Shown here piece after piece: positions 5,045 through 39,455 of a DNA stretch of 64,000 nucleotides. The notes under the pieces are model-generated. The model had not been told where the DNA came from. It did no database searches and was given only the letters and a program-made list of their open reading frames with translations. The stretch is from the NCBI GenBank assembly GCA_017624275.1, contig JAGANG010000078.1:45118-109117 (forward strand). The letters run 5' to 3'. The position numbers and the translations under genes are program-made. Source of the stretch: Spirochaetales bacterium. Its GTDB lineage: Bacteria > Spirochaetota > GWE2-31-10. Position 1 is the stretch's first letter. Each line of letters begins with the position of its first letter.

Positions 5045-5055
5045 AGAGGAAATGT

Positions 5056-7479: not shown

Positions 7480-7490
7480 TTCTATAAATA

Positions 7491-7524
7491 GAAAGTAGGA
7501 TTTTATAATCCTACTTTTTTTATT
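7491..7524 (+). terminator. rho-independent terminator after jag
   Basis: Hairpin aagtaggatt-ttat-aatcctactt followed by a T7 run. Confidence 0.6.
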
Positions 7525-7535
7525 GGGAGTGCAAA

Positions 7536-9520: not shown

Positions 9521-9527
9521 GATTGTT

Positions 9528-11568: not shown

Positions 11569-11674
11569 ATTGTAAATATCCAAAGATATAGTACATTTCT
11601 TTTTTATTTTAGAGTAGTATAATTGTTTAATTATTTGTATATTTCTTTTATAAACAAAATGAGGAGTTTTCTTT

Positions 11675-14338: not shown

Positions 14339-14339
14339 A

Positions 14340-14654
14340 TTACTTTCCAAGAATTGAAGAAAAATCACCCAAAGAACTGCCAAAATCATTTTGGATTTTA
14401 TTCTTCATTTTTTCGCAGGCATCGTTTTGAGCACAAATTATTAAGTCTTTAAAAGTTTCTAAATCTTCAGTTATATATTTATTATTTTCATAAGCGATAT
14501 CAAGTATATTAAATTTCCCATTAATTTTAACCTTAACAAAACCACCGCCGGCTTCTCCGGTAACTTCATAAGTTTCTATTTTACTTTTCATTTCATCAGC
14601 TTTTTCTTTCAAAGAGTTAATATTAAAATTTTTTAACAAATCAAACGGTGACAT
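14340..14654 (-). CDS. ybaB: nucleoid-associated protein YbaB/EbfC
   Basis: 104 aa, YbaB family. Conserved dnaX-ybaB-recR order. Its stop is 1 nt before the recR ATG. Confidence 0.85.
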   Translation of the reverse strand: MSPFDLLKNFNINSLKEKADEMKSKIETYEVTGEAGGGFVKVKINGKFNILDIAYENNKYITEDLETFKDLIICAQNDACEKMKNKIQNDFGSSLGDFSSILGK

Positions 14655-14667
14655 TTCATTCTCCTTT

Positions 14668-16182: not shown

Positions 16183-16204
16183 ATTTTCGACCTATTTTAA
16201 TGTT

Positions 16205-16435
16205 AATATTTAATCGGATAATAAAAAGCCCCTTTACACTCAAAACCGATTACACGCATAAATCTAAAAGGTACCGTTGCTATCTTCCGATCCTGGCGGG
16301 GTTAGTTTCATCATTATCGTATAGAGTCCTGAATTAAAAGAGGCAATTGAGGAATGAGGAATTGAACCTACGTATATCTTTTAGATATGTCAAATCGACC
16401 GATTAACCTTTCTCGCATTTCCCCATAAAAATGAG
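16205..16435 (-). ncRNA. ffs: candidate signal recognition particle RNA (ffs), long form with tRNA-like 5' portion
   Basis: On the minus strand the segment CCGCCAGGAUCGGAAGAUAGCAACGG resembles SRP RNA domain IV (consensus CCAGG..UCCGGAAGGAAGCAGC) with a GGAA tetraloop, compensatory closing pairs and the AGCA loop. The locus sits immediately upstream of dnaX, the conserved ffs position. An adjacent GGTTCAATTCC T-loop-like element may be an Alu-like domain. Boundaries are approximate. Confidence 0.35.
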
Positions 16436-16505
16436 CCAGAGAGGATTCGAACCTCCGACCTTTAGATCCGCAATCTAAAACTCTATCCAGCTGAGCTACT
16501 GGCTC
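16432..16505 (-). tRNA. tRNA-Arg (anticodon GCG as read)
   Basis: Cloverleaf with acceptor GAGCCAG/CTGGCTC, D-loop GCTCAGCTGGATAGAG, T-loop GGTTCGAATCC. Anticodon loop UUGCGGA. No CCA encoded. Confidence 0.8.
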
Positions 16506-16511
16506 GCTCTT

Positions 16512-16598
16512 CGGAAAGTGGGGGATTCGAACCCCCGATACGCACTAACGTATACACGCTTTCCAAGCGTGCACATTCGACCACTCTGACAACTTTCC
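16512..16598 (-). tRNA. tRNA-Ser (GGA)
   Basis: 87 nt, long variable arm, anticodon loop UUGGAAA, T-loop GGTTCGAATCC, acceptor GGAAAGT/ACTTTCC. Confidence 0.85.
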
Positions 16599-16605
16599 AG
16601 TGGAT

Positions 16606-16694
16606 CGGAGAGGAAGGGATTCGAACCCTTGGATCGGGGTAAGCCGATCAACTCCTTAGCAGGGAGCCCGATTCGACCACTCTCGCACCTCTCC
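16606..16694 (-). tRNA. tRNA-Ser (GCU)
   Basis: 89 nt, long variable arm, anticodon loop CUGCUAA, acceptor GGAGAGG/CCTCTCC. Confidence 0.85.
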
Positions 16695-16707
16695 TGTAAA
16701 TAAAAAA

Positions 16708-16794
16708 CGGAGAGCTAGGGATTCGAACCCCAGGTAGCCTCGCGACTACAACGGTTTTCAAGACCGCCTCTTTCAACCACTCAGACAGCTCTCC
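16708..16794 (-). tRNA. tRNA-Ser (UGA)
   Basis: 87 nt, long variable arm, anticodon loop CUUGAAA, acceptor GGAGAGC/GCTCTCC. Confidence 0.85.
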
Positions 16795-17108
16795 AATAGG
16801 TAATGATGAGTATTTAACCTTTTATTTTTTTTTTGTCAATAAAAAAAGATTATTTTTCTTAATAAGATTTATGAAGGGCAAGAATATTCCTGCAATTTAT
16901 CCCCAAAATTAACTTTTTCTCCGGTTGAGTCAGCAAATTTAGTTTAGGCTAAAACACCGTTTAAATAGCATTTCACGAGGCAAAATAAAAAAACTTCAAT
17001 TTTTTTCGTCAAACATGCAATGAAAAAGAAGAAAAGTTCTTTATATATAACGGAGAAATAATTGTTTTTGCACTACAAAAGCAAATTATTGTTTCCTAAT
17101 TTATATTT

Positions 17109-18059
17109 ATGGGAAAAATTATGACAAAAGAAAAAACAAATCATAATTACAAGGACTCGGTCTTTGTTGACCTGTTTGCACACGATGTGACAGCGAAAGA
17201 GAATTTCATTTCGCTCTACAACGCTTTACACGGTACGAATCTTGACGCAAAGACAACGGATGTTCAGCCGGTGATGTTAGAACGTGTACTTTACATGAAG
17301 TATTACAACGATATTGCCATGCTCATTGACGGTAAGATTGTGATTCTGATTGAACATCAATCGACAATCAATCAAAATATGCCCTTTCGGTTTCTGGAAT
17401 ACATCGCAAGAATTTATGAGAAAATCACCACAAAAGACGAGAAGTTCGGGCGTAAATTGGTGAAGTTGCCGATTCCGGAATTCTACGTTTTTTACAACGG
17501 AAAGGACGATTATCCGACAGAAAGTGTGATGAAATTGTCCGACGCATTCATGCAACTTGACGGCGAGTTGAAAAATCAGCTTGAAAATGCAAATTATCCG
17601 CTTGAAATATCCGTGAAAGTAGTTAATATTAACATGGATAAGGAAAACCCGATTTTGAAGCGTTGCGAGACATTAAAGCAATATTCAAAATTTATTGAAC
17701 AGGTGCGTTACAATATTGAGAATGTTGTTCCTGAGCCGTTTACGACTGCGATAAAAGAGGCAATCAAGAAAGGTTTTCTTTCTGATTATTTGAACCGAAA
17801 ATCAACGGAGGTACAAAATATGTTACTAGCAGAATATGATTATGATACAGACATTGCTGTTCAACGAAAAGAAGCCTTTGAAGATGGTATCGCAATCGGT
17901 GAAAAAGTAGGTGAAGAGCGTGGCATTTCTATCGGTTTGTCGCAGGGTGCACATCAAAAAGCTATTGAAACAGCTAGAAATGCATTAACAATGAATTTAT
18001 CTATAGAACAAGTTGCTACTCTTACCGGGCTAGCACCTGAGGAAATCGAAAAGCTTTAA
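17109..18059 (+). CDS. Rpn-family recombination-promoting nuclease / putative transposase (TIGR01784-like)
   Basis: 316 aa. N-terminal PD-(D/E)XK-like nuclease region and C-terminal repetitive tail (DGIAIGEKVGEERGISIG) typical of the multi-copy Rpn/YhgA family described in Treponema. Confidence 0.75.
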   Translation: MGKIMTKEKTNHNYKDSVFVDLFAHDVTAKENFISLYNALHGTNLDAKTTDVQPVMLERVLYMKYYNDIAMLIDGKIVILIEHQSTINQNMPFRFLEYIARIYEKITTKDEKFGRKLVKLPIPEFYVFYNGKDDYPTESVMKLSDAFMQLDGELKNQLENANYPLEISVKVVNINMDKENPILKRCETLKQYSKFIEQVRYNIENVVPEPFTTAIKEAIKKGFLSDYLNRKSTEVQNMLLAEYDYDTDIAVQRKEAFEDGIAIGEKVGEERGISIGLSQGAHQKAIETARNALTMNLSIEQVATLTGLAPEEIEKL

Positions 18060-19190
18060 AACAATAAAGGAAAACATAGATTCCAAAACAAGTTCGGAAG
18101 ACAGGAGCCATACGGATTGGTTCGACAAGCTTACGCTCGGTATTGAACTACCAAATGTTTTAGCGTCTTTTTCTCTTGGGAGTTATAGAGGGTATTCTCT
18201 TTTCATCGCAAAAAAGAGAATACCCTCTAACTTTTACCAACTTTGAACCAAAGTTGCATTTTGAGGCGGACTTGTCCGCAAATTGTCTTTAAACCCGGCG
18301 ACAGCCGAAGCCTTAAACAACAAAAACGCTTCAATGTCGGCTATGCCGACAAATAAAGCTCCAAACCTGCAAAGGTTTATAAAACTTTAAACCAAAGTTG
18401 GCATTTTAACGCCGGGCTACCCCGGCAAAACGTAGAATAACCGAGCGTAAGCCCACTTTCTATTAAAGTTTAGTTTTATGGCGGCGTGCCGAGGAATGGG
18501 GAGGTCATAGGAGGGGAAAACCTGCGGCCTTGCAAAGAGCCGGTGTTCCCCTCCTAAAGATTACACGTTTTGAACCCAAAACGATCTTTAAATGTCGGCT
18601 ATGCCGACAAATAAAGCTCCAAACCTGCAAAGGTTTATAAAACTTTAAACCAAAGTTTGCATTTTAAATGCCGGTATCGCCGGCGAATTGCCACACGGAT
18701 TCGAAATGTCTAACGACATTTCATGAAGTGAAAAAAGTAAGAATAAACTACAAATGTCAGAAGCGTTCTTTTCTTTTAGGGGTATAAGGGGAACTTTTCT
18801 TTTTATCGCAAAAAAGAAAAGCTCCCCTTTAATATTCGTTGTTCTTAGAACAACAAAAACGCTTTAGGGCAGGCTTGTCCGGCAAAACCGATTAAAACCA
18901 AAATGGTTTTATAAAGTTTTGAACCCAAAACGATTTTTTAATGCCTGCCGTCGGCAGGCAAAAGGAACTTTAAACCCAAGTGGGTTTATAAAACTTTGAA
19001 CTAAAGTTGTATTAAAAATGCCTGCCGAAGGCAGGCAAAACGTAGAATATCCGAGCGTAAGCCCTCTACTCCACTGTGGAGAACATCTAAAGTATAATCA
19101 TAGAATTGACAGTTTTTTTTTTTTTTTTACATTCTCTTTGCTTTTCCCCAGCCTTTACTATACTCAAGGGAGAAAAGCGAGGAGTTTAAA
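18060..19190. repeat. mosaic of short repeat and hairpin families
   Basis: Contains a 17-bp-stem hairpin (agagggtattctctttt...aaaagagaataccctct), palindrome arrays (aaactttgaaccaaagtt / gcattttaaatgc / gccggcatcgccggc / tgtcggctatgccgaca), a GGAGGGGAA...TTCCCCTCC hairpin and a ccgagcgtaagccc motif. All recur elsewhere in 18-28 kb in both orientations. Confidence 0.8.
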
Positions 19191-19192
19191 AT

Positions 19193-19927
19193 ATGGCAAA
19201 TAACAATCAATGGCAGGTCTACCTGCGACCGAACACACTCACAAAGGACAACGACAAAGACTGTATCGCCGATGTCCACCTAAACGGTGCGACTCTTACA
19301 AATGAAGACGTAGCACAAAGAATCGTCAGCGAACGAAGCGAATACCGCAAAGACACAATCATCAACATCCTAAATTTACGTGACAATGCAGTAAAGGCAT
19401 TCATTCAAGAATGCTCAAGTTTCCGTGACGGCTTGGTACAAATCACCCCACGTGTCAGCGGAGTATGGGAAAACGAAGCATCTGCATTCGACCCGGCAGT
19501 ACATAAAAGAACAGTAGACCTTGTACCGACAGCAGATCTGCGAAACACATTAGACGCAATATCTGTAAAAGTCATGGGAACGACATCCGCCGCTGCCCGA
19601 ATATCTGCAATCACAGACAGTGCAACGGGACTGAAAGACGGTACAATCACCATCGGAGATGACATCATCATCGACGGAGAAAAAATCAAAATCACAGACG
19701 AAACAGACCAAAATCAAGGTGTATTCATTGTAGATGCAACCGGCACAGAACACCGTGTAACACGCCGACTAACAGTAAACAAACCGAGCCAAATAATCGC
19801 CCGTGTACCGTCATCAGTACCAGCAGGAGCCGTGACAGTAAAAATCAAAACGAACTACAGCGGAAACAAAGCACCACTTTCTGCCATAAGGGAAATATCC
19901 TACGGCTATGAATGCACGGCGGTCTGA
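19193..19927 (+). CDS. HU-like DNA-binding domain protein with DUF4469-like C-terminal domain (Bacteroidetes-type)
   Basis: 244 aa. N-terminus (MANNNQWQVYL...LNGATLTNEDVAQRI...) resembles the Bacteroidetes 'HU family DNA-binding protein' family. GC content is clearly higher than the flanking chromosome. Confidence 0.7.
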   Translation: MANNNQWQVYLRPNTLTKDNDKDCIADVHLNGATLTNEDVAQRIVSERSEYRKDTIINILNLRDNAVKAFIQECSSFRDGLVQITPRVSGVWENEASAFDPAVHKRTVDLVPTADLRNTLDAISVKVMGTTSAAARISAITDSATGLKDGTITIGDDIIIDGEKIKITDETDQNQGVFIVDATGTEHRVTRRLTVNKPSQIIARVPSSVPAGAVTVKIKTNYSGNKAPLSAIREISYGYECTAV

Positions 19928-19947
19928 CTATCTGAAGTACACAGTAT

Positions 19948-20040
19948 GCCTTATGTGAGACCATCACATAAGGTGACCCCCGATGTACAGGACGCTCTAT
20001 GTGAGACCCTCACATAAGACGACCCCTGACATACAAGACG
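19948..20040 (+). repeat. two tandem about-46-nt hairpin units
   Basis: ccttatgtgagaccatcacataaggtgacccccgatgtacaggacg and ctctatgtgagaccctcacataagacgacccctgacatacaagacg. Each contains the inverted repeat tatgtgag...tcacata. Confidence 0.7.
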
Positions 20041-20596
20041 AACGACATCAAGCGTGTCCAAGGAGGGGAGAGGTTATAGGAGAGGGGAACCTTCGGACAT
20101 CGCAACTTTGAGATGGTTCCCCTCTCCTAAAAATTACCAACTTTGAACCCAAAACGATTTTTTAATGCCTGCCTTCGGCAGGCAAAAGGAACTTTAAACC
20201 TTCGTGGTTTAAAAAAGCTTTGAACAAAGCTTTAGCCCGGTGCCGGCATTGCCGGCGAATTGCCACACGGATTCGAAATGTCTAACGACATTTCATGAAG
20301 TGAAAAAAGTGAGAATGAACCACCGCAAGGAGTATGTTTTTTCTCTTTGGGGTTAAAGGGGGACTTCTCTTTTTGATTACAAAAAAAGAGAAATCCCCCT
20401 TAAAAACCTCGTTGTTCTCTGAACAACAAAAAAACTTCAGGGCAGGCTTGCCTGCAAAAGAAGCCTTGAACCTTGCAAAGGTTTAAAAAAACTTTGAACC
20501 AAAGTTGCATCTTAAATGCCGGCATCGCCGGCAAGCCGAAGCCTTAAACCCAGCATGGGTTTAAAAAAAATATTTGTAATAAAAAAAGGAGTACCC
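20041..20596. repeat. mosaic repeat block upstream of the LRR lipoprotein gene
   Basis: Contains the GGAGAGGGGAACC...GGTTCCCCTCTCC hairpin, the gaaatgtctaacgacatttc hairpin, the gggggacttctcttttt/aaaaagagaaatccccc hairpin and palindrome arrays. Its last about 190 nt are roughly 90% identical to 23337..23527. Confidence 0.8.
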
Positions 20597-22972
20597 ATGA
20601 AAAGATTCTTAATCTTGCCGTTAACATTCTTAATGTTAACATCCACCATCATCGGTTGTACGGAAGTACAAGAAAACACAGAAAACACACCCACAACCGA
20701 CGAACAAACTAAAGAGGAAGAAACACCGACAAAAGCCTCTTACACAATAGAACATTACAAACAAAACATTGATGACGACGAATACACCCTTGTAATTGCC
20801 GATACAGAAAACAAAAACGGCAAAATCGAAAATTATACATCAGCAATTGCAAAAGATTACGACGGATTTACATCACAAAAACCGGAACAGCAGAAAATTG
20901 CAGCAGACGGAAGTACAACGGTAAAAATCTATTACGACAGAAAAAAAATCACATTGACATTGAACCTATACGGCGGAAAAGGTGACAAAAGTATTACCGG
21001 CAAATACGGCGAGGCAGTAATCAACGCAACTGTTCCCACAAAGACAGACAGCCTTTTCAACGGCTGGGAACCGGCACTTCCTGCGACATTTCCCCTTGTG
21101 CCCACATTACATACAGCTGTATGGGTAAAAGGAAGCGACACCGTAACAGCAGACGGATGTACATATACAAAAGATATGAAAACTCTGCTGACGGCACAAA
21201 AAGACATTACAACGGCAACAATCCCCGACGGCGTAACTAAAATCGGTGAAAATGCATTTAAAGATTGTACCGCATTGACAAATATAACAATCCCGAACAG
21301 CGTGACAGAAATCGGCTTCTTCACATTTTCAGGTTGCGAAAACTTAGAATACAACGAATACAGCAACGCATTATATATCGGTAACGCCGACAATCCTTAT
21401 CTGATTCTGGTAAAAGCAAAAGACACATCGATAACATCTTGCGAAATCAACAACGACACAAAAATAATCTTATACGCAGCCTTTGACGGATGTAAAAATG
21501 TAGAAACCTTGGCAATCGGCGACGGCATTACATCATTCGACAATCTACCCATAACGCCGGCATTAAAAGAAGTCACAATCGGTAAAGGAATAACTTCAAT
21601 TTGTGATTATGCATTTTTTAATTGCAAGAACCTAACAAATGTAACACTCCCTGACAATGTGACAAAAATCGGAGAATCAGCATTCTCTTGTTGCGACAAC
21701 TTGGTAAATATATCAATCCCCGAAAGCGTAACTGAAATCGGAGACTATGCATTCTACGGCTGTGCAAGCTTGCCGGATATAACAATTCCCGACAACGTGA
21801 CGGAACTCGGAAACTATACTTTCTACGGTTGTAACAGCTTGGCGAGTATAACAATTCCCGACAACGTAACTGAAATCGGAAATCATGTTTTCTACGGTTG
21901 TGACAACTTGGCAAATATAACAATTCCCGACAACGTAACGGAAATCGGAACTCATGCATTCTACGGCTGTGCAAGCTTGGCAAATATAACAATCCCCGAC
22001 AACGTAACAGAAATCGGAAGCCATGCATTCTACAGTTGTGACAAATTGGCAAGTATAACGATTCCCGACAATGTAACTGAAATCAATGACTATACATTCT
22101 CTTGTTGTGACAACTTGGTAAATATATCAATCCCGGACAACGTGACAAAAATCGGAGAATATGCATTCTACGGCTGTGCAAGTTTGACAGACATGACAAT
22201 CCCCGACAGTGTAACTGAAATCGGTTTCAGAGCATTCAACGAGTGCAGTAACCTTACAAGTGTGACAATCGGTAACAGCGTAACTTTTATCGGTTACGAA
22301 GCATTCGAGAATTGCAGTAACTTAGAAAACGTATATATTTTCGATTTAGAAGCTTGGTGTAATATTGAGTTTGAATCCTCTGCAAATCCGCTAAGTAACG
22401 GAGCAAATTTATATTTAAACGGTAACCTGGTAAAAGATTTAGTAATCCCCGACAGCGTAGCTGAAATAAGAGGTGCTTTCGACGGTTGTTCAAGCTTAGA
22501 AAGTGTAATCATTCCTGACGGCAAGACTTCTACCGGTTGGTTCCGTTATTGCAGTAACTTAACAAGTGTTTCCATTCCGGACAGTGTAACTGAAATCAGT
22601 GGCTATGCATTCGAAGGTTGCAGTAGTTTAACAAGCGTAACAATTCCTGATAGCGTGATTACTATCGGCTACTATGCGTTCAGAGGTTGCTCTAGCCTAA
22701 TAAGCATAACAATCCCGGACGGTGTGACTGAAATCTGGAGCAGAGCATTCGAAAAGTGCAGTAGACTAACAAGTGTAATAATCCCTGACAAAGTAACTGA
22801 AATCGGTTTCAGTGCATTCAACGAGTGCAGTAACCTTACAAGTGTGACATTTAAAGATACTGTCGGCTGGAAATATGGCTGGGAAGAGATAGAAATCGAC
22901 GTAACAGATCCGGCACAAAACGCAATTTATTTAAAAGAGACTTATCACGGTAACTCTTGGTACAAAAAATAA
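20597..22972 (+). CDS. BspA-like leucine-rich-repeat surface lipoprotein
   Basis: 791 aa (ATG at 20597 behind RBS aaaggag). Lipoprotein signal MKRFLILPLTFLMLTSTIIGC. At least 20 copies of a 23-aa repeat IPDNVTEIGxYAFYGCxSLxxITIP (LRR_5/BspA type). Confidence 0.85.
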   Translation: MKRFLILPLTFLMLTSTIIGCTEVQENTENTPTTDEQTKEEETPTKASYTIEHYKQNIDDDEYTLVIADTENKNGKIENYTSAIAKDYDGFTSQKPEQQKIAADGSTTVKIYYDRKKITLTLNLYGGKGDKSITGKYGEAVINATVPTKTDSLFNGWEPALPATFPLVPTLHTAVWVKGSDTVTADGCTYTKDMKTLLTAQKDITTATIPDGVTKIGENAFKDCTALTNITIPNSVTEIGFFTFSGCENLEYNEYSNALYIGNADNPYLILVKAKDTSITSCEINNDTKIILYAAFDGCKNVETLAIGDGITSFDNLPITPALKEVTIGKGITSICDYAFFNCKNLTNVTLPDNVTKIGESAFSCCDNLVNISIPESVTEIGDYAFYGCASLPDITIPDNVTELGNYTFYGCNSLASITIPDNVTEIGNHVFYGCDNLANITIPDNVTEIGTHAFYGCASLANITIPDNVTEIGSHAFYSCDKLASITIPDNVTEINDYTFSCCDNLVNISIPDNVTKIGEYAFYGCASLTDMTIPDSVTEIGFRAFNECSNLTSVTIGNSVTFIGYEAFENCSNLENVYIFDLEAWCNIEFESSANPLSNGANLYLNGNLVKDLVIPDSVAEIRGAFDGCSSLESVIIPDGKTSTGWFRYCSNLTSVSIPDSVTEISGYAFEGCSSLTSVTIPDSVITIGYYAFRGCSSLISITIPDGVTEIWSRAFEKCSRLTSVIIPDKVTEIGFSAFNECSNLTSVTFKDTVGWKYGWEEIEIDVTDPAQNAIYLKETYHGNSWYKK
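21700..22210 (+). repeat. near-identical 69-bp tandem DNA repeats encoding the LRR units
   Basis: Repeated units aatataacaattcccgacaacgtaac(t/g)gaaatcggaa...ttctacggctgtgcaagcttggca in tandem. They also produce artefactual minus-strand ORFs. Confidence 0.85.
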
Positions 22973-23527
22973 AGTGAGAACGAACCACCGCAAGGAGTAT
23001 GTTTTTTCTCTTTGGGGTTAAAGGGGGACTTCTCTTTTTGATTACAAAAAAAGAGAAATCCCCCTTAAAAACCTCGTTGTTTCACTTGGTGTTTACAGAC
23101 GTAAACACTTCGTTCGTTCACGCAGTGAACTCACCACTGTTCTCTGAACAACAAAAAAGCTTTAGGGCAGGCTTACGCTCGGTATTTAACTGACGTTAAA
23201 TACTCCGTTCGTTCTACGAACTCACCGTTGCACAGTGACCGAGAGAACGAACTCCCGCTCCAAGCTTGCCAAGGAATGGGGAGGTCATAGGAGGGGAAAA
23301 CCTGCGGCCTGCAAAGAGCCGGTGTTCCCCTCCTAAAAATCCGTTGTTCTTAGAACAACAAAAAAGCTTCAGGGCAGGCTTGCCTGCAAAAGAAGCCTTG
23401 AACCTTGCAAAGGTTCGAAAAAGCTTTGAACCAAAGTTGCATTTTAAATGCCGGCATCGCCGGCAAAAGAAGCCTTAAACCCAAGTGGGTTTATAAAAAA
23501 ATATTTATTTTAAAAAGGAGTCATCTC
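22973..23527. repeat. mosaic repeat block upstream of the second lipoprotein gene
   Basis: Same hairpin and palindrome families as 20041..20596. Includes an 85-bp element (23068..23152) with an inverted copy at 27419..27503. Its 3' about 190 nt duplicate 20405..20596. Confidence 0.8.
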
Positions 23528-25327
23528 ATGAAAAGACTTTTAATTTTATTAACATTATTAATGTTTACTTTACCAAACTGCACAAACACTTCCGAAGACA
23601 GTGAAAACATATTCAACAATAACGAAAACACCACCCAAGACAAAACCGAAGAGGAAGAAGAACAAAAAGAAATCACGTTGACATCAAGCAAATTAACAAA
23701 TGTCACAATCAAAACTCCGCCGGTAAAAACAGAATACACCGCCGGCGAAACATTCGCCCCCGCAGGACTTTATTTGCAGGCAACATATACAGACACATAC
23801 TCCGACGGCACGCAAAAGGAAAACATCGAATTTATAGATTGCGAAACGGGAGCGGTCACATTCACAGGTACAGACTTTGCAGAGGCAGGCACAGCGACCG
23901 TCACAGTGACATACAAAGGGAAAAATGTCACATTCAGCGTAAAGGTAACAGAAAAGCCGGCATTCCCAACAATAGGAAACTACAAAATCACAGGCGAAGA
24001 CATCATAATAAGCGACTTTTCGGACATCACGGTATCGGGAAGCAGTGACGCAGAGTTCAATATATCTTTTCTCGCAACAAAACAGACACAGCTTTCACTG
24101 CCGGAAATAAGCAACATCGCAAAGGCTTTCCCAAACGCTACAATAACAGCAGATGATAAGATTTCATATACAATAAACGGCGGAACAAAAAGGGGAGATA
24201 TACCTGCTGATATTTTCACTTATAATACTTTAGTAGATAATGAATTTAAGGATTTGACAACATTTGCAATTGAAGGAAAAATATTAATTGATGAAACAAC
24301 AGATGTTAATTCCACTGAACACTATGATAATAGACCTGTAAAAATAAGAACTATTACGTTGGACAACGGCACGACTCTTAATATAACAGGAAAATATCTT
24401 GATATCGGACGAAATCGTTTTAAAGTTACTAACAATGCAGTTGTTAATCTGTCTGATGATATAGAAATTACAACATATGATAATAGTGAAAATTCTAGTC
24501 CAACTCATGCAAATATTACTTCCGACATCGCTAATACGCAATTTGACGCATTGGGCCTCACCACCCCAAACTTTGATTTAGCAATCTCTGATGAAAATTT
24601 ATATAATTTCGCTCACAATATTCTTGATAGATATGATAGTTTCGATAAGACAAAGCATAAATTAAAATCATCCTCTTATTTTAATGGTAATTTGAATAAT
24701 TCTACAAATGTTTTATATACAGGAGATGCTCTAGTATCAGAAGAAGATCGTCCAACTTTAAAGTTTTCTAGTGTTAAATATATTTCTGATAAGAATAAGT
24801 TGATAACAATGTATAATCTTGTAATAAATAATAATATTCCTGTAGAGGATAATACTAATCTAGATGTGACTGCAGATTTTACAAATATTGTATTTGAAGG
24901 AGATTTTTCTAATTTTCATAATAAAGGAAGTTTTGAAGGCATATCTCATTTTATGGGTAATCCGATGCAAGGTGTTTCAAATTCTAATGGATATGTAAAA
25001 GTTGATTACGTTGATACTAATGTAGGTGAAATATTTGGAGATATTATAGATCTTACCGACTTGTCAGATGATATAATGTATGATATAGGTTCTAATAGAA
25101 ATATGATGTTAGGAGGAGCTGCTGATGTTATAGGTATCTTTAGAGATGAGAAACAACAAGTTGCGGCTGAAAATATACGTAAGAAAGGTAGTAACCTTGG
25201 TTTTAAGCCTGTTTATTTGCAAGATAATCCTAAGCATAAAAATGAGTTTATTAAAACCCTTGCAGATTGGGAAGTGGAATATAATTCTTCGAAAAAACTT
25301 CAATCTTCAAATACTGCTCAACAGTAA
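23528..25327 (+). CDS. surface lipoprotein with N-terminal Ig-like domain and AT-rich C-terminal region
   Basis: 599 aa (ATG at 23528 behind RBS aaaggag). Lipobox LLMFTLPNC. Residues about 50-190 are GC-rich and look Ig-like (TVTVTYKGKNVTFSVKV). From about nt 24180 the composition switches to AT-rich unrelated sequence. Confidence 0.75.
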   Translation: MKRLLILLTLLMFTLPNCTNTSEDSENIFNNNENTTQDKTEEEEEQKEITLTSSKLTNVTIKTPPVKTEYTAGETFAPAGLYLQATYTDTYSDGTQKENIEFIDCETGAVTFTGTDFAEAGTATVTVTYKGKNVTFSVKVTEKPAFPTIGNYKITGEDIIISDFSDITVSGSSDAEFNISFLATKQTQLSLPEISNIAKAFPNATITADDKISYTINGGTKRGDIPADIFTYNTLVDNEFKDLTTFAIEGKILIDETTDVNSTEHYDNRPVKIRTITLDNGTTLNITGKYLDIGRNRFKVTNNAVVNLSDDIEITTYDNSENSSPTHANITSDIANTQFDALGLTTPNFDLAISDENLYNFAHNILDRYDSFDKTKHKLKSSSYFNGNLNNSTNVLYTGDALVSEEDRPTLKFSSVKYISDKNKLITMYNLVINNNIPVEDNTNLDVTADFTNIVFEGDFSNFHNKGSFEGISHFMGNPMQGVSNSNGYVKVDYVDTNVGEIFGDIIDLTDLSDDIMYDIGSNRNMMLGGAADVIGIFRDEKQQVAAENIRKKGSNLGFKPVYLQDNPKHKNEFIKTLADWEVEYNSSKKLQSSNTAQQ

Positions 25328-30063: not shown

Positions 30064-31479
30064 TTATTTTTTTAATGAGTATTCACCTTTATTGCTTACA
30101 ATGGAGCCGTCAGTCAGTATTTCCATTGCTTTTTGTAATTGAATGTCGTATTCAAGGTCATAAATCGGAGCAGAACTATTTTCATAGTCTAAAGTATTTT
30201 TTAACAATCGACGCATCATTCTGTCGGTAAATACATATCCTTTTTCTTTGAGGTTGACCAAAAATGAATCAATGTCTTTATCTGTAGGGTTTTTATGTAT
30301 TTTGATAAATTCTTCGATAACTTTGTCTTTATAAATTTTCTTTAGACCTTCACGTTCTTCTTCATTCAATTCTGGTTCTTTTATTGTAATGTCCGGCTCT
30401 ATACCTACGCCGTGTATTGAAACGCCGGACGGAGTATAATATTTAGCTGTTGTCATTTTAAATCCGTCAGTACCGTCCGGTAAAAATTGAATGCTTTGAA
30501 CTGAACCTTTACCGAAAGATTTTTCGCCTACTAATATACCTCGTTTTGTATCTTTCAAAGCTCCGGAAACAATTTCTGATGCACTTGCAGAGCCGTTATC
30601 AATCAATACGACGATAGGAATATCTTTTGCGACAATGGTATTAAAAGAAGTTGCAGAATTAACAGTTTGTTCTTTTAATCTGCGGCCTTTTGTCGAAACT
30701 ATAGTTCCTTTGTCTTGGAAAAAGTCTACTATACTGATTGCAGAACTAAGTAATCCGCCCGGATTCATTCTTAAATCCATAATAATACCTTTTACTTTTT
30801 TTGATTTGAAATCAAGTAAAGCTTCTTTGACATGTTTGTCTGTAGTGCCGGAAAATTGTGTAATACGTAAGTATCCGATTTCGTTATTAATAACATCATG
30901 TTTGACTGTAGGCAAATCTATAATTGCACGAACTAATTCAACTTCATATTTTACTTCATCACGCAAAAATTCAATATTTGCACTTGTACCGGGAGCACCT
31001 TTTAACTTTTCCGCAGCATCAGAAACAGAAACGCCTTTTAAAGATTCGCCGTTTACTGAAATCAAAAGGTCTCCTGATTTCATTCCTTTTCTGTATGCCG
31101 GTGTTCCTTCTATAGGAGAAATAACACCAATGTAATCATCTTTTTCTGTGATAATCATTCCGACTCCGGCAAAAGTTCCGGTAGTCGTAGTTTGTAAATC
31201 TTTAACATCTTTTTCACTTAGATAAACAGTGTAGGGATCTCCTATTGCGTCTAACATGCCTTTTATAGCACCGTTGATCAATGTTTTATCATCAAGTTTA
31301 TCTGCATCTACATAGTCTGATTTGATTGCATTAAAAACACTGATAAATTTGTTCATAAACGGAAACGGTTGTTGACTGAATGTTGCCGTAGCGGCAGTAT
31401 TTACAAAAACAGTGAATGTACAAAATGCTAAAAGTACACAAACAGAACAAATCCAGAAAGTTCGTTCTCTTTTTTTCAT
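30064..31479 (-). CDS. ctpA: carboxyl-terminal processing protease (S41), PDZ domain
   Basis: 471 aa. Signal/TM N-terminus, PDZ domain, S41 catalytic region (GGLLSSA, ASASEI). Confidence 0.88.
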   Translation of the reverse strand: MKKRERTFWICSVCVLLAFCTFTVFVNTAATATFSQQPFPFMNKFISVFNAIKSDYVDADKLDDKTLINGAIKGMLDAIGDPYTVYLSEKDVKDLQTTTTGTFAGVGMIITEKDDYIGVISPIEGTPAYRKGMKSGDLLISVNGESLKGVSVSDAAEKLKGAPGTSANIEFLRDEVKYEVELVRAIIDLPTVKHDVINNEIGYLRITQFSGTTDKHVKEALLDFKSKKVKGIIMDLRMNPGGLLSSAISIVDFFQDKGTIVSTKGRRLKEQTVNSATSFNTIVAKDIPIVVLIDNGSASASEIVSGALKDTKRGILVGEKSFGKGSVQSIQFLPDGTDGFKMTTAKYYTPSGVSIHGVGIEPDITIKEPELNEEEREGLKKIYKDKVIEEFIKIHKNPTDKDIDSFLVNLKEKGYVFTDRMMRRLLKNTLDYENSSAPIYDLEYDIQLQKAMEILTDGSIVSNKGEYSLKK

Positions 31480-33512: not shown

Positions 33513-33827
33513 TTATAAATTCTTATCTATAAAATCTTCAATTTGAGCAATAAGCTGAGTTTTCAAAATTTCCTTTGTTCCCGAAACGGTTGTAGAAGCA
33601 TTCCGTAAAAAAAGGTCTGCCGGGTGAATATTCAAAGCCGTCGCAATTTTTTCAATCATCTCAAAAGACGGAAGTTGATTATATGATTCGATACAACCAA
33701 TTGTAGATGTAGCACAGTCGCAAAGTTCTGCGAGTTTTTCCTGTGAAATATGCTTTTCTTTCCTGTAGAATTTTAGGTTCTTAATAAAATCATCTTGAAA
33801 TTTCATACGTATTCTTATTTTAAGCAA
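33513..33827 (-). CDS. XRE-family helix-turn-helix transcriptional regulator
   Basis: 104 aa. HTH_3 ISQEKLAELCDCATSTIGCIE. Divergent from the 34221 operon. Confidence 0.8.
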   Translation of the reverse strand: MLKIRIRMKFQDDFIKNLKFYRKEKHISQEKLAELCDCATSTIGCIESYNQLPSFEMIEKIATALNIHPADLFLRNASTTVSGTKEILKTQLIAQIEDFIDKNL

Positions 33828-34220: not shown

Positions 34221-34541
34221 ATGATTCCATTAATTCCATTACTAATAGGTGGAGGACTTATAGCGTGGGCTATAATAACTATTTCAAAACTAATAAACAT
34301 TATAAAGGGAAGATTTCAGAATGCGGCTTATGTGGAAGTAATTTCAAATAAGATAAAATCTAGTCTTGATAATGGGAATGCCAATGTTGTCAGTGTATTA
34401 AAAGTCAAAGCTTATGATTGTGACGGTAATAAACTGGGAAAAGACAAAATAGAAGGAAAATTTGATGAAGAGGTTCGAGATTTAAGAAAGGGAGAGATTC
34501 TTGATTTAGAAGATGGAGAAGTTTATACATATGAAAATTGA
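34221..34541 (+). CDS. small membrane protein (N-terminal TM helix) with LDNGNxNV motif shared with downstream paralogs
   Basis: 106 aa. RBS aaggag. Stop overlaps the start of the AAA+ ATPase gene (translational coupling). Confidence 0.55.
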   Translation: MIPLIPLLIGGGLIAWAIITISKLINIIKGRFQNAAYVEVISNKIKSSLDNGNANVVSVLKVKAYDCDGNKLGKDKIEGKFDEEVRDLRKGEILDLEDGEVYTYEN

Positions 34542-35895
34542 TGAAAATATTGTCTTTTTTCCAGACGGTAGCATTGATGAATTATTTGAAAAGTTTAGAG
34601 ATGATTTGGAAGTTGCATTAAACAAGGCAGAAAAAATCTGTTCAAAAATTCATGTTTATCTAATTAAAAATTATCTTAATTATTTTCCAAACTCAGATCA
34701 GGATATTGTTTTTAAATATTTTGATTCTTCCCGATTTTCCGGAGAAGATGAAGATATTGTTCATAATTTTATAAAAGAAATGAATAATATAAATGAAAGG
34801 TGGAAAATGGGAAACAATGGTCTTAAAAAACATAATCTAAAGATTATCGTTTTCTTTAATTTTCCCAATAAAGAAGCAATAGAAGATTATCTGTTCGGAA
34901 AAAATAGTCCTAAAAACGATAACGGAACTCCGACTTTAAATATTTTACCTTTAGAACCTAAATACAATTTTAATCAAATGGTTCTAAATGAAAGTGTTAA
35001 ATCTTCCTTGGAAAGTTGTAGCACGATGATAAAAAATATGGACAAGATTTATAAAGAATGGGGATTTGAAGAAATCGACCCGGTTCAAAAATCTGTTCTA
35101 AACTTTTTCGGTCCTCCTGGAACGGGAAAAACCATGGCAGCCCATGCAATAGCAGCGGAGCTGGGCAGAAAGATTCTTGCGGTAAATTATGCAGAAATTG
35201 AATCAAAATTTGTCGGTGAGGCACCAAAAAATTTAATTTCAGCATTTGAAATAGCAAAGAAAGAATCATGTGTTTTATTTTTTGATGAGGCAGATTCATT
35301 CCTTGGAAAAAGAATTACAAGTGTAAGCTCCAGCAGTGACCAAGCAGTAAACTCACTCCGAAGTCAGATGTTAATCCTTTTGGAAACATTCGACATCACT
35401 GTAATATTTGCTACCAACCTAAATGAAAACTACGACAAAGCTTTTGACAGTCGAATTTTGTGCAGTATAAAATTCGAATTACCTGACAGAGAATTGCGTA
35501 AACAATCTATTGCAAAAATGATTCCCTCAAAAGCTCCTATCAACAGAGAAATTCTTACAGATGAACTTTTGTATAAATTAAGCGATTTAACAGAAGGATT
35601 CTCACATCGAGAGTTAAAAAATGTTGCTTTGATGGTACTGACTGAATGCTGTAAGAAAGATTCTCAAATCACTGAAGAATTGCTTGTAGATGTATTTACT
35701 CGCAAAAAAGAAGAGTTTGAGGAACGAAAAAACAAGGAGGGAAAGAGAAAAGAAGAACTCGGTAATAAGATTACTGAAAAGCTTAAAAGCGGTGACTACA
35801 ATGTTAGTAAATCAGCAGCTTCAGAATCTACTGATAATTCGGAATCTCAAGCAAATAGTAACGAGGAAAAGACTGAAGATAAAAAGGAGAAATAA
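34513..35895 (+). CDS. AAA+ ATPase with novel about-190-aa N-terminal domain
   Basis: 460 aa. Walker A GPPGTGKT, Walker B VLFFDEAD, sensor-1 ATN, Arg finger DSR. Lys/Glu-rich C-terminal tail. Alternative ATG at 34531. Confidence 0.85.
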   Translation: MEKFIHMKIDENIVFFPDGSIDELFEKFRDDLEVALNKAEKICSKIHVYLIKNYLNYFPNSDQDIVFKYFDSSRFSGEDEDIVHNFIKEMNNINERWKMGNNGLKKHNLKIIVFFNFPNKEAIEDYLFGKNSPKNDNGTPTLNILPLEPKYNFNQMVLNESVKSSLESCSTMIKNMDKIYKEWGFEEIDPVQKSVLNFFGPPGTGKTMAAHAIAAELGRKILAVNYAEIESKFVGEAPKNLISAFEIAKKESCVLFFDEADSFLGKRITSVSSSSDQAVNSLRSQMLILLETFDITVIFATNLNENYDKAFDSRILCSIKFELPDRELRKQSIAKMIPSKAPINREILTDELLYKLSDLTEGFSHRELKNVALMVLTECCKKDSQITEELLVDVFTRKKEEFEERKNKEGKRKEELGNKITEKLKSGDYNVSKSAASESTDNSESQANSNEEKTEDKKEK

Positions 35896-36057: not shown

Positions 36058-36579
36058 ATGAAAATAGGATTTAAAGAATTAAACAAAATTAATAAGCACT
36101 TAAATAAGTACTTAAAAAAGTCCGGAAAGGAAATTGGAAAAATTATTGATAAATACGGTAAAGATATAAGTAAAATTGTAGTGGAAGAAGGCGGAAAAAT
36201 CATTGAATATCTAAAAGAAAAAGCCAGTGATATTGATGAAGCAATTGATAATGCCGGCGGACTTGAAAATGTATTAAAAACACTGTGGAATACAGAAGAA
36301 GAAGTAGTTGATGTTTTAACATTAGAAATGATGATTTCTTGGTGTAAACAAAATTTGTCTTCTGATACAGAAAGAGCCAGAGCTGTAATCTTACTTTTGA
36401 AACCGTCTCAATTTCCGGATGATTCAAAAATTGATGACTGTCGTTTTTGTTGCTTTGTAGGTTTTCTTGATAATAACGATGACATTATTGATTCAAAGAA
36501 GAAGTATTTTTACTCCGATACTATGGATTTGAACTTGAAAGAAACTTTCGGTGATAAAGATATGATTATTTTGAATTAA
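36058..36579 (+). CDS. hypothetical protein, paralog family member (C-terminal FGDKDMIILN)
   Basis: 173 aa, RBS aaaggag. N-terminal lysine-rich repeats. C-terminal about 60 aa homologous to 36591 and 36942. Confidence 0.55.
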   Translation: MKIGFKELNKINKHLNKYLKKSGKEIGKIIDKYGKDISKIVVEEGGKIIEYLKEKASDIDEAIDNAGGLENVLKTLWNTEEEVVDVLTLEMMISWCKQNLSSDTERARAVILLLKPSQFPDDSKIDDCRFCCFVGFLDNNDDIIDSKKKYFYSDTMDLNLKETFGDKDMIILN

Positions 36580-36590
36580 AGGAGAGTGAT

Positions 36591-36938
36591 ATGGGATTAT
36601 TAGATTTTATATTTGATATATTTGATGATTTATGGAAAACATTGTGTCGTTTTGGTAAAACAATAAAAAAGGCAATTATTTCATTTACAAAAAATATTGT
36701 ATCTTTTTTCAAAGATCCGAAACGATTTAAAAAACTCGCTAAAACTAAAAAGATTTTGGCAACGACAATAAAAGAAAATTTAGACAACGGAAATGTTAAC
36801 GTGATAAATTGTCTTTATGATACAGAAAAAGAACAAGTTATTGAATTGGAAGAAAATGCTATAGGATACGAAAACGGAGAAATGGATCCAGAACTTGCTC
36901 GTAACTTTGGCAATAAAGACATGATTATTTTGCAATAA
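36591..36938 (+). CDS. hypothetical protein, paralog family member (C-terminal NFGNKDMIILQ)
   Basis: 115 aa, RBS aaaggag. Amphipathic N-terminus. Shares about 90 aa with 36942. Confidence 0.55.
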   Translation: MGLLDFIFDIFDDLWKTLCRFGKTIKKAIISFTKNIVSFFKDPKRFKKLAKTKKILATTIKENLDNGNVNVINCLYDTEKEQVIELEENAIGYENGEMDPELARNFGNKDMIILQ

Positions 36939-36941
36939 GGA

Positions 36942-37349
36942 ATGGGTATGAAAATGGAAAATATAATTACTACTGTTGTTTGGACTGTTATCGGAGCTGT
37001 AGCTGTCGGTTTAATTGGAAGCTTAATATATTTTAGAGCAAAGAAAAATCCTCTGGCTATGTTGAAAGCTAATGCAATAGAAGTGGGAGTGATAAAATTT
37101 CAAGATATTATTGCTTTTTTCAAAAATCCGGCATGTCTTGACACTCTTAAGAAAAATAAAAATCTTCTTGCTGTAGCAATTAGAGAAGAAGAAGCTGACG
37201 GTACTATATTTGTACAGGCTTGTCTTTATGATGAAGAAAAAGAAAAAGTCATTGATATGGAGAATTCTTTTATTGTCTACAAATCAAAGCATATGGATGA
37301 TGAATTAACAAAAAACTTCGGTAATAAAGACATGATTGTTTTGCAATAA
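36942..37349 (+). CDS. hypothetical membrane protein, paralog family member (C-terminal NFGNKDMIVLQ)
   Basis: 135 aa, N-terminal TM helix. Tandem paralog of 36591. Confidence 0.55.
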   Translation: MGMKMENIITTVVWTVIGAVAVGLIGSLIYFRAKKNPLAMLKANAIEVGVIKFQDIIAFFKNPACLDTLKKNKNLLAVAIREEEADGTIFVQACLYDEEKEKVIDMENSFIVYKSKHMDDELTKNFGNKDMIVLQ

Positions 37350-37409: not shown

Positions 37410-37438
37410 TAAGGAGGTAGAAATGCCTCCTTTTTTTA
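37410..37438 (+). terminator. rho-independent terminator ending the 34221-37349 operon
   Basis: aggagg-tagaaatg-cctcct hairpin followed by a T7 run. Confidence 0.6.
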
Positions 37439-37543: not shown

Positions 37544-38785
37544 ATGGAAAATCAAGAAAACTTACTTGTTCGATATGATTATTTGGAAACACTAAAAAGA
37601 TTTAAAGGTAAACAATTAATAAAAGTTATTACCGGGATTCGCCGTTGCGGAAAATCCACTTTGTTTGATTTGTTTATAAATCACTTATTAGAAAATAATA
37701 TTCCAGAACAAAACATTATAAAAATCAATTTTGAATCCCCTGATTTTTTTGAATTGCAAGATTGGCTTTCTGTTTATAAATATATAAAAGAAAAACTTTC
37801 CTCTGATTCAATGAATTATATTTTTCTTGATGAAATTCAAAATGTTCCTGATTTTCAAAAGGCTGTTGATGGTCTTTTTATAATGAAAAATTGCGATATT
37901 TACATAACAGGCTCAAATGCATATTTGCTTTCCGGGGAATTAGCGACTTTGTTGTCTGGTCGCTATGTAGAAATAAAAATGCAGCCACTTTCGTTTAAAG
38001 AATATCTTTCTGCCTATGATGATAAATCTGATTTGCCTTCTAAATATCGAAAGTATATCCAGTTTGGTTCTTTTCCCTATATTCTGCAACTTTCTGAAGA
38101 AAAAGATATTCGGTCGTATTTGGAAGGAATTTACAATACTGTTGTACTAAAGGATATTGTTGCTCGTAGAAAAATTGCTGATGTTGGAATGTTGGAAAAA
38201 GTTATTCGATTTATGTTTGATAATATTGGAAATCCAACTTCTGCCACAAATATTGCCAATACAATGACTTCGACTCGCCAAAAAATTTCTTATCATACTG
38301 TAGAAAATTATCTTTCGGCACTTTTGGATAGTTTTATTTTTTATAAAGCCGAACGATATGATGTAAAAGGAAAGCAATATTTATCTACAAATGCAAAGTA
38401 TTATTTGTGTGATATTGGGCTTAGATATTATTTACTAGGAACAAAACCTGCTGATTTTGGACATATTTTGGAAAATATTGTTTTTTTGGAACTTTTGCGG
38501 CGTGGAAATGAAGTTTATGTTGGCAAAGTTGATGATTCTGAAATTGATTTTGTTGCAATTTATAATGGTGAAAAAACATATTATCAAGTGGCATATACAG
38601 TAATTGATTCAGACAATTCCGTCAAAACATTGACCCGAGAATTAAAGCCGTTAAAATCTGTAAAAGATAATTGTGAAAAGATTTTATTAACGATGGACAA
38701 TATTCCGCCGGTTTCTTACGACGGAATAAAGCAAAAATATGTTTTGGATTGGTTGTTGGAAAAGTTACAGCGAAATCAAAATTGA
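37544..38785 (+). CDS. AAA+ superfamily ATPase with DUF4143 C-terminal domain
   Basis: 413 aa. Walker A GIRRCGKST, Walker B IFLDEIQ. Architecture matches the widespread 'ATP-binding protein' (COG1373) family. Confidence 0.8.
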   Translation: MENQENLLVRYDYLETLKRFKGKQLIKVITGIRRCGKSTLFDLFINHLLENNIPEQNIIKINFESPDFFELQDWLSVYKYIKEKLSSDSMNYIFLDEIQNVPDFQKAVDGLFIMKNCDIYITGSNAYLLSGELATLLSGRYVEIKMQPLSFKEYLSAYDDKSDLPSKYRKYIQFGSFPYILQLSEEKDIRSYLEGIYNTVVLKDIVARRKIADVGMLEKVIRFMFDNIGNPTSATNIANTMTSTRQKISYHTVENYLSALLDSFIFYKAERYDVKGKQYLSTNAKYYLCDIGLRYYLLGTKPADFGHILENIVFLELLRRGNEVYVGKVDDSEIDFVAIYNGEKTYYQVAYTVIDSDNSVKTLTRELKPLKSVKDNCEKILLTMDNIPPVSYDGIKQKYVLDWLLEKLQRNQN

Positions 38786-38979
38786 TAAAAACAGTTTTGT
38801 TATATTTAACGGAGATAAAACAAAAGATTTCAGGAACGGAAAAATCCATTGTACACAAAAACCTCTTCGATTGAAATTACGTAATATCTGTGGTGATGAA
38901 ACTATTTGGTGTGTGTAATGTAAACTTGTTTTTCAAAAATGTGGTATAGTACGCTTTTATAAAATTGGAGGATAGATAT

Positions 38980-39204
38980 ATGGTTAGTTCATTTACATTG
39001 AAGACTGATGAATTAGATAATAACTTTCTTGCTACAATAAAAAAATTATTTGCAGGTAAAGAAATTGAAATTACTATTCAAGACTCTCAAGCTGATACAG
39101 ATTATCTTTTGAAAAATCCAGTAAATAAAGCTCATCTACTTTCTTCTATCTCATCTTTGGAAAAAAATGAAAATATAAAAGTTTTTTCAGGAGATGATTT
39201 TTGA
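38980..39204 (+). CDS. yefM: YefM/Phd-family antitoxin
   Basis: About 74 aa from the ATG at 38980 (RBS ggagg). Overlaps the toxin start by 4 nt. Confidence 0.7.
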   Translation: MVSSFTLKTDELDNNFLATIKKLFAGKEIEITIQDSQADTDYLLKNPVNKAHLLSSISSLEKNENIKVFSGDDF

Positions 39205-39455
39205 ACATAATATTTTCTGAAGAATCTTTCTCAGACTATCACAGTTGGGCATTTGAAGATAAAAAATTCTACAAGAAGATAAATGAATTAATAAAAGATA
39301 TAATTCGTTCCCCTTTTTCTGGAATAGGAAAACCTGAGCCTTTAAAATATGAACTTTCGGGATATTGGTCTCGCAGAATAAACGAAGAACATAGATTGGT
39401 TTATAAAGTAATCGATAATTCTATTTTTATTGCTTCTTGTAAATATCATTATTAA
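39201..39455 (+). CDS. yoeB: YoeB/Txe-family mRNA interferase toxin
   Basis: 84 aa. SWAFEDKKFYKKINELIKDI...RRINEEHRLVYKV matches YoeB. Confidence 0.8.
   Translation: MNIIFSEESFSDYHSWAFEDKKFYKKINELIKDIIRSPFSGIGKPEPLKYELSGYWSRRINEEHRLVYKVIDNSIFIASCKYHY

Follow-up and report, generated by a model that had tools for sequence, protein, structure and literature searches.

In NTPase-centred conflict systems, effector-associated domains (EADs) recruit effectors to the NTPase through homotypic contacts (Kaur, Burroughs, Iyer, Aravind, eLife 2020; PMC7159879). The locus described here resembles such systems. It is a five-gene operon in a 64,000-nucleotide stretch (hereafter the window) of contig JAGANG010000078.1 from a Spirochaetales bacterium, and encodes an AAA+ ATPase and four small proteins, A, C, D and E, in the order A–AAA+–C–D–E. 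As in EAD systems, one small domain is found on neighbouring proteins with varied effectors (LRAT, patatin, and transmembrane helices). In the operon, C, D, and E all end in the same tail of this domain. A further, candidate likeness is that the domain is perhaps also present on the core NTPase, where the match is weak and covers only about 40 residues (hhalign probability 29%). Unlike EADs, the domain matches no described family, its strict C-terminal tail is not a described EAD feature, and the core NTPase is a classic-clade AAA+ protein, not a STAND or MoxR-vWA protein. We tentatively propose, at somewhat less than an even chance, that the shared domain is an adaptor or assembly domain coupling membrane-active modules to a Cdc48-like unfoldase, likely for membrane damage in a conflict system.

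The operon is also comparable to ESCRT-III/Vps4 and its archaeal form CdvB/CdvC, in which a classic AAA+ protein accompanies paralogous small membrane-binding subunits with a conserved extreme C-terminal motif. However, the small proteins of the operon are alpha/beta rather than helical Snf7 proteins and have no Pfam Snf7 or PspA match, and the N-terminal domain of the ATPase is alpha/beta, unlike the MIT three-helix bundle of Vps4. IetAS is reportedly a defence system of Gao et al. 2020 and a toxin–antitoxin pair of pTiC58. The ATPase resembles IetA, its best match in PADLOC, in being a single-module classic AAA+ protein with a distinct N-terminal domain. However, its top NCBIfam family, IteA (NF042959), scores 91.9 bits, far under the equivalog cutoff of 510, and the partners are entirely different. 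The subtilase/peptidase S8 partner IetS was seen neither in the window cassette, nor in the Pfam-annotated related loci, nor among the top 25 families of 115 flanking open reading frames (ORFs). The score and the missing partner indicate that the cassette is not IetAS. CBASS and Pycsar (patatin CapV, transmembrane effectors) and HORMA–TRIP13 are alike in combining membrane effectors that have a common domain with an AAA+ remodeller in the operon. Unlike in those systems, there is no HORMA fold match, the TRIP13 match reflects generic AAA similarity, and no CD-NTase or cyclase was seen in the examined cassettes or the top 25 families of flanking ORFs. Secretion and sorting genes of the type I secretion system, type IX secretion system C-terminal domain, or sortase type are not conserved near the cassette. 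Neither the domain nor the cassette is described in any library, structure collection or literature searched (open-access text on EAD, IetA, LRAT/patatin/AAA, and TerB/AAA), and the logic of an NTPase plus a shared connector is already known. The features of the operon in the window are as follows (aa, amino acids).

34221 to 34541, plus strand: gene A, 106 aa, a divergent copy of the shared domain behind a transmembrane helix at the N-terminus.
34513 to 35895, plus strand: AAA+ ATPase gene, classic-clade (Pfam AAA, PF00004, 5e-28).
35749 to 35805, plus strand: C-terminal motif of the ATPase (residues 413–431), ELGNKITEKLKSGDYNVSK, conserved across 61 homologues.
36058 to 36579, plus strand: gene C, 173 aa, a soluble helical N-terminal half and the shared domain at about residues 83–173.
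36591 to 36938, plus strand: gene D, 115 aa, an N-terminal amphipathic helix and the shared domain.
36942 to 37349, plus strand: gene E, 135 aa, an N-terminal transmembrane helix, basic residues behind the helix, and the shared domain.
37411 to 37432, plus strand: terminator-like hairpin with a T-run, 3' of gene E, closing the operon.
33513 to 33827, minus strand: HTH_3 (Xre-type) regulator (Pfam HTH_3, 1.2e-10), divergently transcribed.

At its end, gene A runs into the ATPase gene, and genes C and D are separated by 11 nt and D and E by 3 nt. The C-terminal sequences should be noted first. Gene C ends with TFGDKDMIILN (tail FGDKDMIILN at 36547–36576), gene D with NFGNKDMIILQ (tail FGNKDMIILQ at 36906–36935), and gene E with NFGNKDMIVLQ (tail FGNKDMIVLQ at 37317–37346). 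A six-frame scan of the window for FG[DN]KDMI[IV]L gives exactly three matches, each one residue ahead of the stop codon. This confirms the common tail of C, D, and E pointed out in an earlier sequence-only reading of this DNA. The region of about 90 aa that the same reading found common to D and E (47% identity over 92 aa, E 8e-27 by BLAST) and the transmembrane helix it assigned to E (residues 8–26, Kyte-Doolittle 19-residue mean 2.22) are also borne out. Other parts of that reading have to be revised. It limited the common region of C to the last 60 aa or so and saw divergent N-termini joined by an invariant tail, whereas C, D, and E all carry a C-terminal domain of about 90 aa, of which the tail is the end. 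Pairwise BLAST ties C to the other paralogs via its last 35 aa or so only, but a hidden Markov model (HMM) built without C-type sequences aligns to C residues 62–173 (E 4e-9), showing that C carries the whole domain. The protein of gene A, said to share LDNGNANVV but to lack the tail, is a divergent fourth paralog (E 6e-7 to D by BLASTP). It does have the LDNGNANVV hairpin, but its tail is degenerate (RDLRKGEILDL) rather than simply missing and is followed by 9 extra residues; the A-type proteins of relatives terminate directly behind the equivalent strand.

The N-terminal parts of the small proteins differ. A has a transmembrane helix at residues 1–19 (Kyte-Doolittle 2.23), the N-terminal helix of D is amphipathic (hydrophobic moment 0.69), and C and D have no signal peptide. 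The charge pattern, with basic or charged residues after the transmembrane helices, suggests that the shared domain faces the cytoplasm. Outside the tail, the paralogs are 27–47% identical. The tail codons differ synonymously (TTC/TTT, GGT/GGC, GAT/GAC), and thus the identity of the tail is maintained at the protein level and does not come from copied DNA.

A profile search against 1.84 billion representative proteins, of the kind the sequence-only reading had proposed as a check, extended the domain to a family of 445 clusters (50% identity) at E ≤ 1e-3, with the tail as its most conserved part. The best 150 of the 445 clusters are 68–241 aa long, and in nearly all of them the match stops no more than two residues short of the C-terminus. 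Over 265 members, the final ten columns hold 3.18 bits per column, compared with 1.90 in the rest of the domain. In the 232 members that match the motif, the residues at the successive tail positions are F (232) at position 1, G (214) at position 2, D (127) or N (79) at position 3, K (224) at position 4, D (174) at position 5, M (211) at position 6, I (181) at position 7, V (140) or I (88) at position 8, and L (217) at position 9. Exactly one residue follows the tail L in 227 of them, and it is polar (Q, K, N, R, S, E or T) except in three cases. These counts support a tail that is under strong purifying selection and bound to the extreme C-terminus.

The small proteins have no match in Pfam, NCBIfam, PADLOC or PHROGs, C and A giving sub-threshold noise only. 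A library scan of 93 family members likewise gave weak matches only, with ComGG in 20 of the 93 (best E 0.0016). Homology to the ComGG pilin was rejected; the N-terminal hydrophobic helices probably drive the matches, and there is neither a prepilin cleavage motif nor pilus genes.

The AlphaFold2 model of D, built from an alignment of 93 sequences, has a pLDDT of 92.5 and a pTM of 0.85. A long helix at the N-terminus leads into two short ones; a beta-hairpin (IKENL–DNGN–VNVINCLYD) comes next, and after it a third strand and one more helix precede the tail, which forms the final strand at residues 111–114 with a pLDDT of about 90. Foldseek gave no match for the model, the best E being 0.65 in the PDB and 0.16 in BFVD. 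The tail is thus predicted to be a structural strand of a domain without a recognisable relative and not a free peptide. It is conserved far beyond the other strands, and its polar G, K, and D residues are invariant, indicating a functional surface.

The constraint on the tail is also seen between close strains. We calculated the ratio of non-synonymous to synonymous changes (dN/dS) by the Nei-Gojobori method for the window against two syntenic relatives, L028 and L029, with flanking genes common to all. Against L028 and L029, respectively, dN/dS is 0.14 and 0.17 for the DUF4143 flank, 0.06 and 0.17 for the AAA+ ATPase, 0.58 and 0.25 for gene A, and 0.66 and 0.50 for gene E. Gene D gives 0.79 against L029, where the proteins share 57% aa identity, and is not defined against L028, where there is one difference. 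C and D are nearly identical between the window and L028. Compared with its L029 counterpart (L029:5644-5991), D retains identical last 18 residues, and 11 tail codons are unchanged against a gene-wide proportion of non-synonymous differences of 0.28; C is 96% identical, and dS of the flank is about 0.12. These values indicate mosaic allele replacement inside the operon, and the tail is strongly constrained while the rest of the D protein changes fast.

The cassette is found in distant genomes in the same arrangement. Gene content and order are unchanged on contigs of Brachyspira aalborgi and Helicobacter labacensis, which encode an A-type transmembrane protein of about 95 aa, an AAA+ protein of about 430 aa, a C-type protein of 139 aa, a D-type protein of 108–110 aa, and an E-type protein of about 120 aa with a transmembrane helix. 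Their C, D, and E types terminate in FG(D/N)K(D/N/G)MIVL-x or something very similar. We scanned 185,579 species genomes and obtained 19 cassette loci, in Brachyspira, Treponema, metagenome-assembled genomes (MAGs) of Spirochaetales, five Helicobacter genomes, one Helicobacteraceae MAG, Candidatus Desulfovibrio intestinigallinarum, and one bin labelled Clostridium. The layout AAA-C-D-E is kept in all of the 19 loci with available flank, C-type orthologues lie directly 3' of the ATPase gene in most loci, and an A-type gene is upstream in most; some A-type proteins match the family HMM. Another 38 loci from metagenomes add the alternative order C-D-E-AAA in some. Orthologues of every paralog, standing in an unchanged order, are present in other phyla. 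The paralogs thus represent orthologous groups of long standing, which excludes a recent duplication.

The presence of the ATPase was scored within 1.5 kb at loci having at least 1.8 kb on both sides (n = 31). It is present in 27 of the 31, that is, in all 27 intact loci, and the remaining four hold only a 54–57-aa 3' remnant of a Brachyspira-type E gene. Such remnants are seen at L062:1948-2109, L064:5989-6150, L066:4021-4191, L067:2822-2992, and L061:796-1497, on Brachyspira-like metagenome contigs that retain the last 54–57 E-type codons with neither the ATPase nor other paralogs nearby. In L061, a prepilin-peptidase-like ORF runs into the remnant; the resulting ORF of 233 aa ("A24_N_bact + tail") was rejected as a fusion, since it reads into the 3' remnant of the E gene. 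The remnants look like the scar of a deleted or decayed cassette.

A related locus, L030:4595-8506, encodes an ATPase (P0186) with 56% identity and a D-like protein with a degenerate tail, …FRNGNDVIAVRM, followed by a transmembrane protein with an FGE-sulfatase domain, a putative lipoprotein, and a zinc-ribbon protein. This locus, possibly a sister system, has Fic and ResIII/restriction genes next to it. In loci of Helicobacter and Treponema, a gene just 5' of A encodes a small metal-binding CxxCxxCC protein (PF03692; L004:5690-5986, L012:2234-2494, L019:3530-3781, and L021:2508-2771), and Brachyspira has an unrelated double zinc-finger protein in that position (L001:5649-5900).

The likely start of the ATPase is the ATG at 34531 and not the ORF start at 34513, because a database homologue, P0121, is 454 aa long. 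The protein is single-module. Its Walker A motif reads GPPGTGKT, its pore loop SKFVGE, and its Walker B motif FFDEAD; among 61 homologues, both Walker motifs and the aromatic pore loop SKFVG are invariant. The nearest relatives of solved structure are the D2 modules of Cdc48/p97 (5e-35), and Vps4 is also close. Classic-clade AAA+ proteins with an intact pore loop are of the type that threads and unfolds proteins. PADLOC IetA (9e-32, its best defence-library match) covers only the AAA module, NCBIfam CdvC matches the AAA module at 9e-22, and PADLOC TRIP13 matches at 2e-9. Two phage matches are also confined to the AAA module; the context of the one in Moraxella phage Mcat5 is uninformative, and the record of the other carries no annotation.

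The N-terminal domain is a variable alpha/beta region and the least conserved part of the ATPase. Its AlphaFold model (b-a-b-b-a-b-a, pLDDT about 90 over residues 1–122) has no PDB match by Foldseek (best E 0.78), and the ideas of MIT, PDZ or Cdc48-N for this domain and of HORMA were dropped for want of a Foldseek match. Its poor conservation makes it a poor candidate receptor for the invariant tail. The consensus of the C-terminal motif is L-x-x-x-I-K-x-N-L-x-x-x-N-Y-x-V-x-K, with an acidic low-complexity tail behind it, and it aligns with the helix and the first beta-hairpin of the small-protein domain. By hmmsearch, the same register is found in most of the 61 ATPases, with individual E-values mostly above 0.01. 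The alignment is suggestive but weak; if the similarity is real, the ATPase would hold a partial copy of the connector domain.

The modules attached to the shared domain were compared across loci. They comprise a transmembrane helix (A and E), an amphipathic helix (D), and a soluble helical region (C), and phospholipase modules sit on extra paralogs at other loci. LRAT/PLAAT-type phospholipase/acyltransferase fusions with the catalytic NCEHF motif are seen in P0323 (3e-30) and P0378 (4.5e-29) and at loci L011, L014, L032, L038, and L044, and a patatin phospholipase fusion with GTSVG and DGG motifs at L050 (3.7e-36). A third homology search, with the tail domains of the phospholipase fusions, gave 9 hits and no further fusion architecture. 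An expanded variant at L026:4108-9984 encodes a TerB protein, A, the AAA+ ATPase, an NYN-domain RNase, C, and six D/E-type paralogs in a row. Elsewhere, a sub-threshold TerB match lies upstream in the Helicobacter locus L004, with a similar upstream gene in L021. In L048 the ATPase carries a fused region with a weak TerB match, and the L055 ATPase has the same length, 569 aa. The soluble region of C aside, the identifiable N-terminal modules are predicted to be membrane-directed. Two unrelated phospholipase families together with transmembrane and amphipathic helices on one connector are typical of membrane-acting effector sets.

The fixed terminus, the purifying selection, and the constant company of the ATPase fit a functional interface that involves the ATPase. 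In the mechanism that we propose, the shared domain would be an assembly or adaptor module by which the small proteins hetero-oligomerise on the cytoplasmic face of the inner membrane. The conserved contact surface would consist of the tail strand, with the free carboxylate one residue off, and the NGNY...CLYD hairpin. The ATPase hexamer could then dock on the complex of small proteins, possibly via its own partial copy of the hairpin at the C-terminus, and ATP-driven remodelling might switch the membrane-active modules between held and released states. The outcome would be controlled damage to the cell membrane, as in abortive infection and other conflict systems; this is the least certain step. 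A conflict role of the abortive-infection type nevertheless seems likely, because phospholipase and RNase modules are added at some loci, the distribution is patchy across phyla, the cassette is lost in places, and the small proteins evolve fast. The full proposal is possible but doubtful: an AAA+-driven, probably immune, membrane-attack system of gut bacteria (spirochaetes, Helicobacter, and a few others), in which a new adaptor fold, defined by its obligatory C-terminal strand FG(D/N)KDMIVL-x, would tie transmembrane, amphipathic, LRAT or patatin effectors to an unfoldase resembling Cdc48. The ATPase would bear part of the same fold, and ATP-dependent remodelling would time the damage.

Several observations weigh against the adaptor and conflict proposal. 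Most loci, that of the window included, are without any enzymatic effector. The similarity between the ATPase and the small-protein domain is weak (hhalign E 6e-4, probability 29%, 42 columns), and a model of one chain does not tell a surface position of the tail strand from a buried one. Part of the divergence among strains is due to mosaic recombination and not necessarily to positive selection. A scan of the flanks with PADLOC and Pfam gave no clear defence-island signal, few of the 115 flanking ORFs matching PADLOC. The family was not found in phage or plasmid collections (tblastn of D) or in IMG/VR (pattern scan), an absence that neither supports nor excludes a defence role.

The strict spacing of the tail from the C-terminus would also be expected of a degron-like handle, in which the ATPase reads the free C-terminus (…IVL-x-COOH) and threads, extracts or unfolds the small proteins. 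ClpX acting on ssrA tags and Msp1 on membrane proteins are precedents for such a mode of action. In favour of such a handle, the ATPase gene always lies beside the small-protein genes, its product retains the aromatic pore loop and is most similar to the Cdc48/Vps4/PAN unfoldases, and both A and E are anchored in the membrane with a domain that is predicted to lie in the cytoplasm. However, AlphaFold confidently places the tail as a strand in the folded domain and not as a free peptide, and the single residue past this strand leaves little to engage. An invariant tag should also have a conserved receptor, whereas the N-domain of the ATPase is poorly conserved, and conservation extends over the whole domain beyond the tail. 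We regard such a handle as unlikely. The sequence-only reading had taken the tail as a recognition tag without a structural role, for the adjacent ATPase, a protease or a secretion route. The fixed position and strong selection agree with the first half of this idea, and the modelled beta-strand disagrees with the second. A tag for the ATPase, which is present in all 27 intact loci, survives in modified form as the handle just described. The idea that the tail directs secretion or marks the proteins for a protease that processes C-termini fares much worse. PDZ proteases do read C-terminal hydrophobic motifs, and the window, L028, and L029 all have an S41/PDZ protease gene (30064-31479 in the window) some 3 kb upstream of gene A. 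However, at the loci of Brachyspira, Helicobacter, and others the cassette has no such protease gene in its vicinity, none of the genes conserved around it serves secretion, the basic residues behind the transmembrane helices suggest a cytoplasmic domain, and C and D lack signal peptides, so that this part of the earlier idea is very improbable.

Other explanations concern the domain or the cassette as a whole. A transmembrane helix or a phospholipase combined with a common C-terminal domain matches the architecture of signalling effectors, and the conserved polar residues (tail K and D, NGNY, and YD) cluster in the tail and the hairpin, where they could form a pocket for a small-molecule signal as in CBASS, Pycsar, and Thoeris effectors. 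On the other hand, no cyclase or other signal-making enzyme is present at the examined loci, three to eight paralogs per operon would be unusual for signalling effectors, and the partial copy on the ATPase would be left unexplained; a sensor is therefore improbable, slightly more so than a housekeeping machine for membrane remodelling or repair. In the latter, as in ESCRT-III/Vps4 or PspA, the subunits would polymerise and the AAA+ protein would recycle them with no conflict role. Small membrane-anchored paralogs beside a classic AAA+ protein, neighbours that are mostly housekeeping genes, and TerB, a membrane-stress-associated domain linked or fused at some loci, all suit such a machine. It is nonetheless quite unlikely, as the small proteins have no Snf7 or PspA match and the ATPase N-domain is not MIT-like, the distribution across phyla is patchy with remnants that attest to cassette loss, A, D, and E change rapidly from strain to strain, and the phospholipase and NYN RNase additions are typical of effectors. 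Finally, the genes are adjacent and in tandem, as a recent duplication or gene conversion without selection on the tail would leave them. The sequence-only reading had named such a duplication, with equal dN and dS, as an outcome that would undo its proposal. What we found are ancient orthologous groups with a constrained tail: identity outside the tail is 27–47%, orthologues stand in the same order in other phyla, tail codons differ synonymously, and the tail is invariant while 43% of D residues have changed. These results refute a recent duplication, to which we assign a negligible probability.

The surroundings of the cassette vary. Flanking genes differ by taxon and are mostly housekeeping genes (GroEL, flagellar rod, transporters). 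In the window, the cassette is flanked by the Xre-type regulator and by a PDC-S01-type AAA_14/DUF4143 gene, followed by a YoeB toxin gene. The position of the regulator is kept in L028, L029, and the variant L030; it is not beside the Brachyspira or Helicobacter loci and adjoins the cassette in this spirochaete lineage only. The AAA_14/DUF4143 ATPase gene lies directly downstream at 37544-38785 (PADLOC candidate PDC-S01, 5e-162), and a gene for a 79-aa putative antitoxin (38965-39204) precedes the YoeB toxin gene (39201-39455; PF06769, 1.2e-37). The toxin pair is absent in L029, and L028 has only a 74-aa gene there, so that this spot varies among strains. Farther away, the G+C content of the window steps from about 26% over positions 1-16000 to about 40% over 16000-24000, and the boundary holds four tRNA genes (16432-16795) and the SRP RNA (16236-16333). 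The cassette acts as a unit of its own that lineages gain and lose.

If the adaptor and conflict proposal is true, the cassette would be a new multi-gene system among the NTPase-plus-effector conflict systems, built on a classic AAA+ unfoldase, and its small new fold would be a connector shared by modules that damage membranes. As the tail is almost without exception followed by a single residue, it offers experiments an easy point of attack: a lengthened or shortened C-terminus would be expected to disable the system. Most carriers are bacteria associated with the gut, among them Brachyspira, Treponema, and enterohepatic Helicobacter, and to our knowledge little is known on phage defence or membrane stress systems in them. 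Even without a defence role, an unannotated family of 445 clusters with an obligate ATPase partner deserves a family definition.

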